Origin: a phage
Sequence record: PZ583739.1
DNA: 64,000 nt
Strand: one strand, 5' to 3'
The stretch's first letter is position 1. The number at the start of each line of letters is the position of its first letter. A program made the translations under genes and the position numbers. The notes under the pieces were generated by a model. It did not search any database and was not told the DNA's origin. It saw only the letters and a list, made by a program, of their open reading frames with translations. Below are positions 59,453 to 64,000 of the stretch, one piece after another.

Positions 59453-59659
59453 ATGGGAACATTATTCTATCAGATTTGGAAATTAACCAGTAAGAAAGAC
59501 AAGAAGCTCATCATGGGCTTTTTAGCTCTTGATGTTTTCCTGTGGAACTTACTGGTTGTGCCTATCGCTGCAACACAAGGGGTACACTTACCCCAGGTCA
59601 CAATGGAACATATCCATTCCATCATCGGTTACTTTACCGGAATCCCTTCCTCGTCTTGA
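59453..59659 (+). CDS. small membrane/secreted protein, tandem paralog B
   Basis: 68 aa, SD AGGTGGA; FLWNLLVVPIAATQGVHLPQV parallels paralog A; 3' end converges on the HNH gene. Confidence 0.4.
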   Translation: MGTLFYQIWKLTSKKDKKLIMGFLALDVFLWNLLVVPIAATQGVHLPQVTMEHIHSIIGYFTGIPSSS

Positions 59660-60396
59660 TACTTCCAAAAATGGCCGTTTGACCTATACATTCGGCCTGT
59701 CTTTTTATTTCTTTTACAAGCTGTGTATATATTTTGAGTATTGCCCGCCAATTGTAATAATTCCTTTGCCTCAGCTCCCGAATTATACTTTTCAAGTATA
59801 TTACCAAATTCATCGCATCTACAAACCGGTGTTCCAGTTGCCTTTCGGCATGCTTCTCGCCGCAACTTTTTCGTTTCTTCGGTTTGCGGATTTTCTTTAA
59901 ATCTTCTCATTTGTGCATCGCGATTCTTTTGCCGTTGTTCATCAGTAACTGGATTATTTTGATAATACAATTTTAATGAGTTAGCTATTTTACTTTTGGT
60001 TTTATCAGACACAGGGTGGTCGTTATGTCGCTTGTGTAAAGCAATTAACATTTTGTCTTTAAACTCGGATTGACTCCATAAGTTTGACATATGTTCACTA
60101 ACGGCTTTACTATGTTCTTTTCGCATCCATTCATATTTTGCGCTATCAAATTTGTCACCGCACATCCGGTGTATAGCAAACATTAATTTAGAAAGTCGAT
60201 AAATTTTAAAAAGTAACAAATGTGCAATAAAATGTTCTCTTGCTGATAACAATACCAAATTATCTTCGGTGTCAGGTCCACCCAAACACCTTGGTAGTAT
60301 ATGATGGGACTCCGTATAAAATGGGATATTCTTTTTGTTTAGGCCCCTTGCGAGGCCTTTGTCTATTAATTTATTATATAATTTTAGATAATTCAT
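59629..60396 (-). CDS. free-standing HNH homing endonuclease (mob-like mobile element)
   Basis: 255 aa; HNH core ESHHILPRCLGGPDTEDNLVLLSAREHFIAH; basic C-terminal region; ATG overlaps the gene 61 TGA stop (ATGA). Confidence 0.8.
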   Translation of the reverse strand: MNYLKLYNKLIDKGLARGLNKKNIPFYTESHHILPRCLGGPDTEDNLVLLSAREHFIAHLLLFKIYRLSKLMFAIHRMCGDKFDSAKYEWMRKEHSKAVSEHMSNLWSQSEFKDKMLIALHKRHNDHPVSDKTKSKIANSLKLYYQNNPVTDEQRQKNRDAQMRRFKENPQTEETKKLRREACRKATGTPVCRCDEFGNILEKYNSGAEAKELLQLAGNTQNIYTACKRNKKTGRMYRSNGHFWKYQDEEGIPVK

Positions 60397-61421
60397 ATTT
60401 TTGCATATTTGGATAATCGAAGTTTTGCCATTAAACCTTGTGCAATATTATCATTCATATAGGCTTCAATTTGCTCAGGCGTTGCTCCTTCCGATTTAAT
60501 CATTTCATTTATATCTTTCGTATGCCACGGTGCGTTGTCCCAGAACATAACAGCTTCTCCTGCATCGACTAATTTCTTCATACGTTTAATCGTATCAGGA
60601 TGTCTTGCTTCTGAATCCATCACCCATACTCTGGTTTCTGGGTAAGGAACAGCTTCCAATGCTAATGTTCCACCGGTTATCGCAATGCTGTTAGGGATAA
60701 ACAAACTATCAATTGGACCTTCCATTACCCATACGCGTTTACGCTCATCAATCTTGTCTACGCCATAGACTTTGGAAGCTTCTGGGTGAGCTTTGATTGT
60801 GATATATTTTTGTGGTGCATCTTTGCGAAGAGCTCGTCCTTGGAAAGATTCGATTTCTTTTTTGCCGTTGAAGATAGGAATAACCAAGCGTGGTTCATTC
60901 GTTTCATTCTTATACGTCCCAGGATTAACGGAGTTAACTAATGCAGGCCATTTGTTTGTAAACCATAACCGGTTCCAAACATTGCTCGGAATACACCGAC
61001 TTTTTACATACTTAATTATCGGATGTGCTTCTGGTAAAGTATCGAGTCTTTCACAAAAAGCAAGCTGCTCAATAACCGGAGTTTTTTCTGGTTCTTTCGG
61101 AGCTTCTGCAACTTCAGTGCGTTGTCGCCCAAATGCATTCTCCTTATACTTCTCAACCATATATTCCCGGTGTAAATCCGGCTCAAACTCTTTTATGTAT
61201 TTGCTTATATGCGTGGAGTAGTCACAGTTAAAACATTTCACGTAAACCGCGCCATCAGTCGGATTAGTATACGCCCAGAATCGAGCCTTGTGTGAATCTT
61301 TCTGGGAGTCCCCACAAACCTTGCAACGACAGTTTGCTTTAAATGTGCTCCCGGTGACTTCTCTATAACGTGGTTGATACGATAAAGCTCTGACTGCAAA
61401 TTCTTTATCAATATATGACAT
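60393..61421 (-). CDS. 61: DNA primase gp61
   Basis: 342 aa; zinc motif ...CKVCGDSQKD...C.NCDY...; ...VMEGPIDSLFIPNSIAITGG...; C-terminal IAQGLMAKLRLSKYAKI match T4 gp61 as remembered. Confidence 0.92.
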   Translation of the reverse strand: MSYIDKEFAVRALSYQPRYREVTGSTFKANCRCKVCGDSQKDSHKARFWAYTNPTDGAVYVKCFNCDYSTHISKYIKEFEPDLHREYMVEKYKENAFGRQRTEVAEAPKEPEKTPVIEQLAFCERLDTLPEAHPIIKYVKSRCIPSNVWNRLWFTNKWPALVNSVNPGTYKNETNEPRLVIPIFNGKKEIESFQGRALRKDAPQKYITIKAHPEASKVYGVDKIDERKRVWVMEGPIDSLFIPNSIAITGGTLALEAVPYPETRVWVMDSEARHPDTIKRMKKLVDAGEAVMFWDNAPWHTKDINEMIKSEGATPEQIEAYMNDNIAQGLMAKLRLSKYAKI

Positions 61422-61453
61422 AGTTTCCTCATTTCAATGGCCCCGAAGGACCA

Positions 61454-61621
61454 TTATACTGTAGGTTTATCGTCTTTGTTCTTACGCTTTTTTGATGGGA
61501 TTTGTTCAGGGCCTTTATTGACAACTGCCCCGGAAGTGGTACCTGTTGCGATATTAGTTGGGTTTCCACCCGCATCACCGGCAACCATATTTTCGTTGAT
61601 AAAATCTTTGAATGTTTTCAT
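61454..61621 (-). CDS. small protein (55 aa), not in ORF track
   Basis: ATG 61621, TAA 61454; MKTFKDFINENMVAGDAGGNPTNIATGTTSGAVVNKGPEQIPSKKRKNKDDKPTV. Confidence 0.3.
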   Translation of the reverse strand: MKTFKDFINENMVAGDAGGNPTNIATGTTSGAVVNKGPEQIPSKKRKNKDDKPTV

Positions 61622-61640
61622 AACACCCCCTTTCCGCTAT

Positions 61641-61832
61641 TTATACAACGAAGATAGCTTTATCACCATTTGCATCAGTCACTTCATAAGTGTCTTCATG
61701 ATACAACGGAATAATCCAGGTAACACCATCATCAGCGATAACATGGATTGCTTCTTGGTCTTGCGATACGATTTCATATTCTTCAAAAATCTGGAAGACA
61801 GAAATCTTAGAGCCCGTACACATTGCACTCAT
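61641..61832 (-). CDS. hypothetical protein
   Basis: 63-aa ORF. Confidence 0.4.
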   Translation of the reverse strand: MSAMCTGSKISVFQIFEEYEIVSQDQEAIHVIADDGVTWIIPLYHEDTYEVTDANGDKAIFVV

Positions 61833-62028
61833 ATTGTTCCCTTCTTTTAATCAGTTGACGATGTGCCTTTTTAAGTTTACGAATCTGGCGTTTAGTTGGT
61901 CGAGCAACGTAAGCTTGAGTAGTTACTCGTCCAAAAACTCCGTACTTGGGAGACGGAGTGTCAATAAAGACTTCCCATTGACAAGAGTAACTATATATTG
62001 CTTTAGAGAATTGGGTCAAAACAAACAT
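61807..62028 (-). CDS. hypothetical protein
   Basis: 73-aa basic ORF. Confidence 0.4.
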   Translation of the reverse strand: MFVLTQFSKAIYSYSCQWEVFIDTPSPKYGVFGRVTTQAYVARPTKRQIRKLKKAHRQLIKRREQYECNVYGL

Positions 62029-62029
62029 A

Positions 62030-62380
62030 TTAACCTCGCTTCATGAAGGCATTAAAAATCTGGTCGTCGACAGACTGTTCTTGAGCTTTGCCTACCCCAT
62101 TCAAAATGTCGTTCGCTTCATCAGATAACATGACTCCAATTTTGGGATTTCCCGTTATCCAGGCGGCGCAATCACGCACATTCTTTTTATCAAACGGATA
62201 ACCGCGAGTATCTTCATAAGGTCCTTTCATTACCAGGAATGAGCGAGCCTTTATGATAATATCATCTTTAACGATAATATAACCAATCGCCTGATTAAAC
62301 CGAGGGTCGCGGAATTCATAATGAGCATTACCATCATTATTGCTCGCCAGTTCAAAATTCAGAAAATTGTAATCATTCAT
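62030..62380 (-). CDS. hypothetical protein, paralog sharing C-terminus with the 62382 gene
   Basis: 116 aa ending SVDDQIFNAFMKRG. Confidence 0.45.
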   Translation of the reverse strand: MNDYNFLNFELASNNDGNAHYEFRDPRFNQAIGYIIVKDDIIIKARSFLVMKGPYEDTRGYPFDKKNVRDCAAWITGNPKIGVMLSDEANDILNGVGKAQEQSVDDQIFNAFMKRG

Positions 62381-62381
62381 A

Positions 62382-62819
62382 TTAATCTCGCTTCATGAAA
62401 GCATTAAAAATCTGGTCGTCAACTGAATAAACAGGGGTTTCCAGAATTTTCAAAAGACTGTTTTTGATGTACTTGCCAGGGATACCCATATTAACAATAC
62501 TGTCATTCAATTCATTATCAGGGTTGATGTCTTTAAATTCAAACCCGTCAAACTCAACCTTGTCAGGAATACCATCAGCGAAAAAATAAACCAATTGGTG
62601 CATTGTATTGCACGAAAATAATTTGGACTTGACCGCAATAAGTTCTTTCCAATGGTTTAATTCTTTGTTAAGAAGCTTATGAGCAAACGTAATTCTATCA
62701 TCACTATCAACAAGAAAATAACCCAGGTATTGATGGTCGTCGCTCCAAAACGCCCTGTATGCTTGTGCATTTGGATTTTTACAACGAAGTTTTTTGATAA
62801 CTAAATTTCTGTTAATCAT
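62382..62819 (-). CDS. hypothetical protein, paralog sharing C-terminus with the 62030 gene
   Basis: start reset to ATG 62819; ends SVDDQIFNAFMKRD. Confidence 0.45.
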   Translation of the reverse strand: MINRNLVIKKLRCKNPNAQAYRAFWSDDHQYLGYFLVDSDDRITFAHKLLNKELNHWKELIAVKSKLFSCNTMHQLVYFFADGIPDKVEFDGFEFKDINPDNELNDSIVNMGIPGKYIKNSLLKILETPVYSVDDQIFNAFMKRD

Positions 62820-62820
62820 T

Positions 62821-63114
62821 TTATTCACCTGTAACCCATTGAACAATCTTGCTGTTGTCAAATGAAGCATCGCAATACAGAACATAGTTATACTGCATAA
62901 CGTCACCAGAAGTCAATTGGTCAGATACTTCTTTAACCATATCAGGGCGGTCACGTTTAGTAATATTCATGATATCAGCATAAATCTGATGTTCAACATC
63001 AGTCTGGTCAGCAGTCATAGACCACTCACAAAGGTCTTTATCAAGTCCAGCAGTAACTGGAGCTGTACCACATGATGCTACGGTAAGAATTGCTGCGATT
63101 AATAACTTTTTCAT
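62821..63114 (-). CDS. sp: Spackle periplasmic protein
   Basis: 97 aa; signal peptide MKKLLIAAILTVASC...; ...DKDLCEWSMTADQTDVEHQIYADIMNITKRDRP... and ...VMQYNYVLYCD... match T4 Sp as remembered. Confidence 0.85.
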   Translation of the reverse strand: MKKLLIAAILTVASCGTAPVTAGLDKDLCEWSMTADQTDVEHQIYADIMNITKRDRPDMVKEVSDQLTSGDVMQYNYVLYCDASFDNSKIVQWVTGE

Positions 63115-63134
63115 TTCAATCTCCTCAGTAGTTG

Positions 63135-63172
63135 ATAGGGATAATATACTGCATTACCCCTTTGATGTAAAC
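63135..63172 (-). promoter_or_regulatory. early promoter upstream of sp
   Basis: minus strand GTTTAC (63167-63172 rc) ... TATATTAT; leader CCCTATCAACTACTGAGGAG. Confidence 0.4.
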
Positions 63173-63174
63173 TG

Positions 63175-63378
63175 TTATTTTTCGTTAGAACGATAATCAT
63201 ATTCAAAAACTTTATTGTCATTAACAAAGGCTTTAACCAGCGCATTATTCACTTCTGCATACTGCACTGTAACCCATTCAATCATATTTTTGTCACTGAC
63301 ATCCAGCGCGGTTTCTTTGGTAAACATATTACCATTTTCAAACCAACCAATAAACACTACGTTCTCTAATTTATACAT
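63175..63378 (-). CDS. dmd: Dmd, inhibitor of RnlA/LsoA toxins
   Basis: 67 aa; ...VVFIGWFENGNMFTKE... and ...VQYAEVNNALVKAFVNDNKV... match T4 Dmd (gene 61.5) as remembered. Confidence 0.85.
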   Translation of the reverse strand: MYKLENVVFIGWFENGNMFTKETALDVSDKNMIEWVTVQYAEVNNALVKAFVNDNKVFEYDYRSNEK

Positions 63379-63696
63379 TTAGATTTCCTCACAGAAGGCC
63401 CAGTCAGCGTGATAAACTGTTGCGCCTTTAGTATCATTTAAACAAACCACGTCAACAGGTGCAATCACACGATAAAGACGGGGTTCTCCTCCATATGAGC
63501 GAGCTGCTCTTCCTGCATAGATACGTGCCAAACCAATATCTTCAGTAAAAAACACACGCCCTAAATTTTTCTTACGCCCAACTTCTGACAGAACACCAGT
63601 TGCATCAGGAGGGCAAAGCATATTTTGGATTCCAGCATTAGAGCTTGACCCATGATAATAAACTTTGTATTCTGCCTTGCAATCAATGGTTTTCAT
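63379..63696 (-). CDS. hypothetical protein, unassigned; candidate counter-defence gene
   Basis: 105 aa; stop abuts the dmd ATG; MKTIDCKAEYKVYYHGSSSNAGIQNMLCPPDATGVLSEVGRKKNLGRVFFTEDIGLARIYAG...; own promoter cassette upstream. Confidence 0.5.
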   Translation of the reverse strand: MKTIDCKAEYKVYYHGSSSNAGIQNMLCPPDATGVLSEVGRKKNLGRVFFTEDIGLARIYAGRAARSYGGEPRLYRVIAPVDVVCLNDTKGATVYHADWAFCEEI

Positions 63697-63722
63697 TTTA
63701 TTCTCCAGTAGTTGATAGGGTC

Positions 63723-63755
63723 ATTATAACATAAGAAAAAGGGGCTGTAAGCCCC
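63723..63755 (-). promoter_or_regulatory. composite terminator hairpin / early promoter
   Basis: hairpin GGGGC-tgtaa-GCCCC (63741-63755) then T-run and TTATAAT on the minus strand, leader CCCTATCAACTACTGGAGAATAAA. Confidence 0.4.
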
Positions 63756-63767
63756 TTTTAAAATATT

Positions 63768-64000
63768 TTAAAATTTCATTTGAGCAGCAAGGTCGTCCAG
63801 GTCGCTCCTGTTGACCCTGGTTTGTCGATTCATTTCAGCCTGGCGATTCATCTCACCGGTGGCTTCTTTAACTGTAGGGCCTTGTTTAGGAGCCGAATCA
63901 TCATCAACCTCATACCAGCGCTGATTACCTTTCTTAACACCCATCTTGAATTTATTATAGTAGTTCTTATCACCATAACGAGACTTAAGCTGTTTGATTA
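63768..64000 (-). CDS. 3' end (C-terminal ~77 aa) of a gene running off the right edge; probably gene 41 helicase by synteny
   Basis: open frame ends ...VNRSDLDDLAAQMKF with TAA at 63768-63770; T4 places gene 41 after dmd. Confidence 0.4.
   Translation of the reverse strand, partial: IKQLKSRYGDKNYYNKFKMGVKKGNQRWYEVDDDSAPKQGPTVKEATGEMNRQAEMNRQTRVNRSDLDDLAAQMKF

Follow-up and report, generated by a model that had tools for sequence, protein, structure and literature searches.

Why do two consecutive genes of a T4-type phage, whose bodies share no nucleotide similarity, end in nearly the same DNA? The question is raised by a 43-bp direct repeat in sequence record PZ583739.1, a 64-kb stretch of DNA from a phage of the Gaprivervirus group (the whole stretch is called the window below), where one copy of the repeat spans each of two neighbouring gene junctions on the minus strand. 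The evidence points to an in-frame recombination joint, built from a 3' module common to the AdfA (T4 gp61.2) superfamily and kept alike by selection together with recombination; the probability of this reading was put at about 0.7. AdfA, the product of T4 gene 61.2, is described as an anti-DarT factor in PMC11257639 and PMC9391042, with LeRoux et al. 2022 as the work cited there.

Position and extent of the repeat

A pattern search of the plus strand of the window returned exactly two matches, at 62026-62068 and 62378-62420, with 41 of 43 positions identical. The 43-bp direct repeat described in an earlier, sequence-only reading of the same stretch was thereby recovered at the coordinates given there, and the two tracts, which differ at 2 of 43 positions, remained near-identical on re-examination. 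No match to the pattern was obtained in dinucleotide-preserving shuffles (0 of 100). A repeat search extended the pair to 56 nt (62019-62074 and 62371-62426, 88% identity) and found no second long repeat within 60000-64000. A third copy or a tandem array was found in the window neither at up to three mismatches nor at the level of the protein motif. With the two genes aligned at their stop codons, an ungapped identity profile gave 9-10 identical positions per 10 from about -45 to +5, and the random level (1-5 per 10) on either side of this tract of ~50 nt; its edges are sharp. The best matches to the window over 61400-63750 were phages RZ, PSD2001 and SP18, at 95-97%.

Anatomy of the two gene junctions

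Copy 1 (62026-62068, minus strand; similarity over 62019-62074) contains the last 12 codons of a 116-amino-acid (aa) gene (DDQIFNAFMKRG), its TAA stop, one base and the ATG of a 73-aa gene. The ATG of this 73-aa DUF7279 gene is at 62026-62028 (CAT on the plus strand), the stop of the 116-aa gene at 62030-62032 (TTA on the plus strand), and a Shine-Dalgarno-like GAGG at 62034-62037, 5 nt before the ATG. Copy 2 (62378-62420, minus strand; similarity over 62371-62426) is built in the same way from the last 12 codons of a 145-aa gene (DDQIFNAFMKRD), TAA, one base and the ATG of the 116-aa gene. Here the ATG is at 62378-62380 (CAT on the plus strand), the stop of the 145-aa gene at 62382-62384 (TTA on the plus strand), and a weaker GAGA motif at 62386-62389.

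The 116-aa gene (62030-62380, minus strand; phrog_4122), called A below, is equivalent to RB32ORF033c and to T2 '61.2', and is assigned as a homologue of the C-terminal half of AdfA. It forms the cassette between the two repeat copies, and one period measures 352 bp. The 145-aa gene (62382-62819, minus strand; phrog_8539), called B, is JS98 ORF030c-like and has a conserved 3' block of 29 codons. The 73-aa DUF7279 gene (61807-62028, minus strand) is gp61.4-like by the annotation of phage VR7, and both its start codon and its ribosome-binding site lie inside copy 1.

The sequence-only reading had placed in each copy the start of the next gene, the stop, and the last 12 codons of the gene before it. 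This arrangement stood, but the shared peptide had to be redrawn: it is the 13-residue SVDDQIFNAFMKR (by BLASTP), followed by (G/D), TAA, one base and the next ATG, and the 12th codon of the tract differs between the copies (GGT, Gly, versus GAT, Asp). The junction is TAA-T-ATG in both copies, with the Shine-Dalgarno-like motif within the upstream open reading frame (ORF). This proximity of stop and start, together with the motif, has the layout of a translationally coupled junction, and the adjoining genes may be coupled in this way.

Distribution of the tail

The consensus of the tail is S(V/I)DDQIFNAFM(K/N)(R/K)(G/D), in which DDQIFNAFM is invariant over three families and four genera. The three are PHROG families, those of AdfA, of the 118-aa proteins (A) and of the 145-aa proteins (B). 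A six-frame motif search of the fetched loci placed the tail at the end of ORFs of ~120, ~147, ~210 and ~223 codons, and none of the Tequatro-, Gapriver-, Dhaka- or Mosig-like loci sampled lacked it. The same type of direct repeat is formed in the Tequatrovirus RB51 by two neighbours, 61.2/AdfA (210 aa) and the A orthologue RB32ORF033c (118 aa), since each has SIDDQIFNAFMN(K/R)G-TAA-T-ATG at its end. Since AdfA, a third family, has the same invariant tail, much of the similarity between the repeat copies is protein-level conservation.

In the annotated phage collection the 56-nt element was present in 560 phage records at 758 places, with one or two per genome among the matches listed. A-type genes were found in 333 records of this collection, AdfA bodies in 487, and B bodies in 86, the last in Gapriver- and Dhaka-type phages only. 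The distribution relies on this collection; in IMG/VR the DNA pattern returned 16 stretches, some of them very short, and a gp61.1 anchor at least five loci. Two IMG/VR sequences of 175-178 kb (L025 at 3503 and L027 at 3674) carry ~125-aa proteins upstream of gp61.1 that end in the degenerate tail IDSQIFN(C/Y)WMKK, with an ATGA stop/start overlap, so the range of the tail motif may include more distant T4-like genera.

Genes at the locus and their relation to AdfA

The gene order on the minus strand is a 105-aa gene (phrog_2110), dmd, spackle, B, A, the 73-aa DUF7279 gene, a 63-aa gene, 61.1 and the primase gene 61. The tract had been assigned to a 61.x counter-defence neighbourhood, and Dmd, Spackle, a DUF7279/61.4-like gene and relatives of AdfA are all there. 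Full-length AdfA is not present in the window. Binding and neutralisation of a DarT toxin are known only for RB69 AdfA(R164H) and T4 AdfA (PMC11257639).

Between A and B, BLASTP aligned only the 13-residue tail, and each protein matched the PHROG family of the other only through its last ~20 residues. RB51 gp61.2 matches the Pfam family AdfA (PF23813) with E = 8.5e-138, ends in the same tail and junction, and over residues 111-210 matches phrog_4122 with E = 1.3e-10. The A protein also aligns to phrog_3781, and against PF23813 it scores 19.8 bits, below the cut-off of 27, over profile positions 131-211, the C-terminal part of the profile. The B protein gave no match in Pfam. With the tails removed, profile-profile comparison of A and B in hhalign gave a weak but colinear alignment (E ~0.003, probability 11%).

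Structures of both proteins were predicted with AlphaFold (mean predicted local distance difference test score, pLDDT, of 80 for A and 66 for B). The input alignments were shallow, because homologue searches (word-indexed and full HMMER) gave few and closely related sequences; one HMMER match, P0048, was rejected as a homologue, being a repetitive false positive. In both models four beta strands are followed by a short strand, a helix and one more strand, so that the order of elements is the same. In a Foldseek search of viral predicted structures with the model of A, the orthologue of A itself was directly followed by two proteins, one of 145 aa from VR25 (E = 2.2e-4) and one of 212 aa (E = 1.2e-3). 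To judge by their lengths, the first would be a member of the B family and the second AdfA-like. No solved structure related to A or B was found, either by sequence or by fold. A and B are taken as distant relatives of AdfA with the same predicted fold, and the models make it plausible that the two are anciently paralogous to one another. This inference rests mainly on predicted structure, because the tail-less sequence test is weak, and the paralogy assumed in the sequence-only reading likewise appears plausible from the common order of secondary structure and the Foldseek links to the 145-aa and 212-aa proteins.

In both models the tail has low pLDDT (47-52 and 32-44) and the bodies are confidently modelled. 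The predicted form of the tail is a helix of low confidence that lies apart from the well-modelled fold, behind a variable linker; nowhere in the A alignment are indels as frequent as in the segment immediately before the tail, and the invariant 3' block of B comprises 29 residues. Such a helix behind a variable linker suggests a docking motif, and the pattern would fit a tethered docking or interaction motif.

Probable footprints of recombination

One-period differences between close relatives are found in two genera. Both flanks of the locus in phage VR26 (L022, KP007362.1) are colinear with the window (roughly 90-95%, judged by eye), and exactly one repeat period is missing: gene A and one copy are absent, and B is linked to the DUF7279 gene by a single intact tail. 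Among the matches listed, all close relatives other than VR26 carry A and align in two pieces, so that loss of A in VR26 is the parsimonious reading. T4 likewise lacks exactly one period relative to RB51 (ORF033c and one copy), and its tail is chimeric: the end of T4 AdfA has 0 of 49 differences from the tail of the downstream ORF033c of RB51 and 3 from the tail of RB51 AdfA. An unequal crossover in the repeat, at its 5' edge, would be expected to leave such a tail. In the Dhakavirus-type loci listed, B is alone and its tail leads straight into the DUF7279 start.

A mosaic boundary was found at the same place. A Logan contig (SRR8048120; L031) carries at 560-991 a 143-aa gene in the position of B. 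Compared with B of the window, the nucleotide identity of this gene is 39% in the body and rises to 93.5% in the final 93 nt, a sharp mosaic boundary at the 3' module. The tract had been proposed as a likely recombination hotspot, and the one-period differences of VR26 and of T4 and RB51, this mosaic, and the synonymous excess given below agree with its acting as a recombination joint.

Two further loci carry irregularities near a tail. In a second Logan contig (SRR23924977; L032, 3360-3395) a 125-aa A-type gene follows spackle directly, and its tail junction has a small scar ahead of the next start, with 9 nt duplicated in tandem (AGAGGCTAA AGAGGCTAA TG). T2 (L006, 1715-1775) and T4_ev151 (L008, 1779-1795) have the 118-aa gene and no AdfA; after the spackle stop both carry TTAGAGGTTAGTATG, which resembles the last 14 nt of the tail (AGAGGTTAATATG) and, from its letters, looks like a remnant of an AdfA deletion.

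Codon-level evidence

Synonymous sites of the tail vary between lineages (GAT/GAC, CAA/CAG, ATT/ATA, GCT/GCC/GCA, TTT/TTC, AGA/CGA), so there is no strict constraint at the nucleotide level. The two copies of the window share the minor codons GAC, GAC, CAG, TTC, AAG and CGA. Synonymous agreement was assessed by drawing codons independently from the window's own usage, given the peptide, over the 12 shared codons (36 nt). Two or fewer mismatches in 36 nt, as in the window, have P = 0.015; the tails of phage RZ have no mismatch in 36 nt (P ~1e-4).

Across 23 tails of 49 nt each, the mean number of differences was 4.3 between tails of different families within a genus, versus 6.6 between tails of the same family in different genera. 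Both Gaprivervirus tails have Lys as AAG at a place where the Dhakavirus orthologue of B and the Tequatrovirus orthologue of A have Asn as AAT. The tails show a pattern of concerted evolution, which is not universal. The short near-identical tract, its sharp borders and a synonymous agreement above expectation bear out the earlier suggestion of a gene-conversion tract.

Alternative explanations

An assembly artefact had been named by the sequence-only reading as one way in which the repeat could fail, and the chance that assembly or sequencing produced it is negligible: both copies are also present in the independently sequenced phages PSD2001, RZ, VR7 and UPEC07 and in the IMG/VR contigs L013 and L014, an analogous pair exists in RB51 and in L024, and ordinary reads are longer than a 43-bp repeat. 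A regulatory element at the nucleotide level, be it RNA structure at the downstream start or a MotA-type middle promoter (TGCTTTC/TGCTTTT, 12 nt, TAATAT), is improbable. Minimum-free-energy folds do contain small local hairpins involving the GAGG, but their energies are no better than those of shuffles and the predicted structures differ between the copies; folds of 121-nt mRNA segments from the window and RB51 copies gave z = 0.67, -0.19, 1.18 and -0.19 with no common structure, and RNA structure was rejected. A near MotA-box does stand ~12 nt upstream of TAATAT in copy 2 and in Tequatrovirus tails. The motif TGCTTT(C/T), 12 nt, TAATAT, at 62386-62412 (minus strand) of the window and at 1765-1795 of L007, resembles the consensus of MotA-dependent middle promoters. 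Copy 1, however, has TGCCTTC at this place, which breaks the core of the box. No sigma-70 promoter-like site was called within 62026-62068 or 62378-62420 (the closest such site, 62019-61990, is downstream of copy 1 alone), nor was a terminator-like site called in either copy, and synonymous positions vary freely between lineages. Still less credit was given to a recent tandem duplication of a single gene whose copies remain alike at the 3' end alone; the sequence-only reading had offered a recent duplication, and this had to be given up. The spacing of one gene length, the direct orientation and the common predicted fold agree with a duplication, but identity beyond ~50 nt is at the random level with sharp edges, BLASTP aligns 13 residues only, and the tail-less hhalign comparison reaches only E ~0.003. 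For the 116-aa gene, orthologues from other genera have 47% identity; for the 145-aa gene the figure is 87-91%. Because each gene has orthologues of its own in other genera, the split between A and B predates the genera; because their bodies share no nucleotide similarity, the two are not recent duplicates but members of old, separate families.

There remains constraint on protein and translation as the whole explanation: two old paralogues would have conserved a C-terminal motif, a ribosome-binding site and a start junction, recombination would have no special role, and the one-period differences would be coincidental ancestral states. This was judged unlikely. In its favour, DDQIFNAFM is invariant over the three families and four genera although the lineages differ at synonymous sites, and GAGG with TAATATG makes a sensible translation start. 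It does not accommodate the tails of RZ, identical at 36 of 36 nt in minor codons, nor the exact ORF033c tail of RB51 on T4 AdfA, the differences of exactly one period that set VR26 and T4 apart from close relatives, the jump in identity from 39% to 93.5% within one gene of L031, or the grouping of tails by genus and not by family. Several observations nevertheless weigh against the recombination joint. The two tails of L031 differ at ~12 of 46 nt, as constraint would allow, and the copies in VR7 and UPEC07 at 7 of 49 nt; since these tails are not homogenised, selection on the peptide can by itself keep an amino-acid repeat. The window's P = 0.015 is moderate, and genus-specific codon preference could add to the similarity within genera. 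The single tail of VR26 has the markers of the upstream copy only, so that a crossover would fall in the last 8-10 nt, on the scale of microhomology and not of the full repeat. The direction of each indel, loss or gain, would follow from parsimony only.

Proposed mechanism

Under the preferred reading, that of an in-frame recombination joint, the 3' module consists of the invariant C-terminal peptide, the GAGG supplied by its last codons and the TAA-T-ATG junction, and where members of the family are adjacent the module appears as a direct repeat one gene length apart. Two forces would maintain it. Strong purifying selection would fix the peptide, and homologous recombination or gene conversion between copies, both within a genome and between co-infecting phages, would periodically homogenise the DNA. 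A crossover in the module would remove, add or exchange a whole gene body. Because the copies share a codon register and carry the downstream start, the products of such a crossover would keep the ORF, the tail and the next start intact. The rate of recombination at the tract may still be elevated at present.

A further proposal, more speculative and on present evidence doubtful, concerns the peptide. The DDQIFNAFM tail might dock AdfA-type proteins of all three families on one common partner of phage or host origin, such as a replisome- or single-stranded-DNA-associated protein or the countered class of toxins. Its DNA would double as an in-frame connector for stacking, dropping and swapping specificity domains in T-even phages, an anti-toxin cassette system in which excised circles of 352 bp, gene plus tail, would be possible transfer intermediates.

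Comparison with known systems

In T4-type phages, recombination between neighbouring PeSL (promoter-early stem-loop) cassettes deletes or inserts ORFs and can form mini-circles (PMC2839356; also PMC4122927). A PeSL lies between genes and combines a terminator stem-loop with a strong promoter of sigma-70-like type (PMC2839356). Like PeSLs, the tail repeats are short conserved sequences that border non-essential genes in variable T4-type regions, and close relatives differ by repeat-bounded units (at the tail, VR26, and T4 versus RB51). Unlike PeSLs, the tail repeat is coding, encodes a peptide, has no called promoter or terminator and no stable structure, and recombination at it is constrained to be in frame.

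T4 itself amplifies and deletes dmd-tifA segments through microhomologies of 6-10 bp, in a neighbourhood called the 'anti-TA island', with endpoints that differ per population (Srikant, Guegler & Laub 2022, PMC9391042). The neighbourhood is the same, and here too segments are gained or lost between short direct repeats. The microhomologies, though, are arbitrary sequences of 6-10 bp, whereas here one defined sequence of 43-56 bp recurs as an endpoint across genera. Because T4 rearranges the same region through 6-10 bp, a patch of 43-56 bp is ample substrate.

Compared with AdfA, the genes of the window share the tail and junction, and A aligns to the C-terminal part of the AdfA profile, but A falls below the Pfam cut-off and B is without a Pfam match. 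As in gene conversion and concerted evolution of paralogues, a near-identical tract stands amid unrelated sequence and copies within a lineage are more alike; unlike the usual case, the tract encodes a strongly selected peptide, which confounds selection with conversion, and some genomes lack homogenisation. In lambdoid phages, 'boundary' or linker sequences at gene borders have reportedly been proposed as sites of module exchange, an idea associated with the modular theory of Susskind and Botstein and with the work of Clark and colleagues on HK620 (2001). These too are short homology patches between otherwise unrelated genes that guide legitimate recombination and make mosaics; they belong to another phage group, and are mostly intergenic or border-spanning and without a conserved protein motif. 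The PeSL is the closest described system, and the tail repeat is a coding, in-frame counterpart of a PeSL or of a lambdoid boundary sequence. A literature search, not exhaustive, found no description of the coding tail element.

Neighbouring elements of the window

Upstream of the 105-aa gene, a sigma-70-like promoter (CTTACA, 17 nt, TG-TATAAT) coincides in part with a stem-loop, AAAAGGGGCTTACAGCCCCTTTT, at 63723-63759 (minus strand), and the two together make a PeSL-like cassette. A second early-type promoter lies at 63143-63171 (minus strand), upstream of spackle. The two promoters have a 23-nt segment in common (63126-63148 and 63706-63728, 580 bp apart), which covers the -10 region and 5' untranslated region, and this repeat flanks dmd and the 105-aa gene. 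The latter (63379-63696, minus strand; phrog_2110, no Pfam match) stands just upstream of dmd and is conserved in RZ, PSD2001 and E33. PSD2001, VR7 and UPEC07 have one or two extra genes between sp and dmd. An extra ~350 bp in PSD2001, phage 212 and TH40 was considered as a third module and rejected, being an unrelated extra gene between sp and dmd. At 59629-60396 (minus strand) a 255-aa ORF shares 4 nt with the 3' end of the primase gene 61; its match to HNH endonucleases is weak (E = 8e-4, below the cut-off), and it may be a homing-endonuclease-like insertion.

Significance

The locus belongs to the T-even 'anti-toxin island' (Dmd, TifA, AdfA, Spackle). A shared connector explains the gene sets found there: AdfA only in T4, the 118-aa gene only in T2, both in RB51, the 145-aa gene only in the listed Dhakavirus-type loci, and the 145-aa and 116-aa genes together in the phage of the window. 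For engineering and phage therapy, spontaneous deletions or duplications of the 116-aa gene are to be expected, and primers or guides placed in the tail would match two sites. The invariant tail of 9-13 residues is the most conserved feature of AdfA-family proteins. As a shared connector, its DNA predicts where new combinations would arise under selection by DarTG-like defences.

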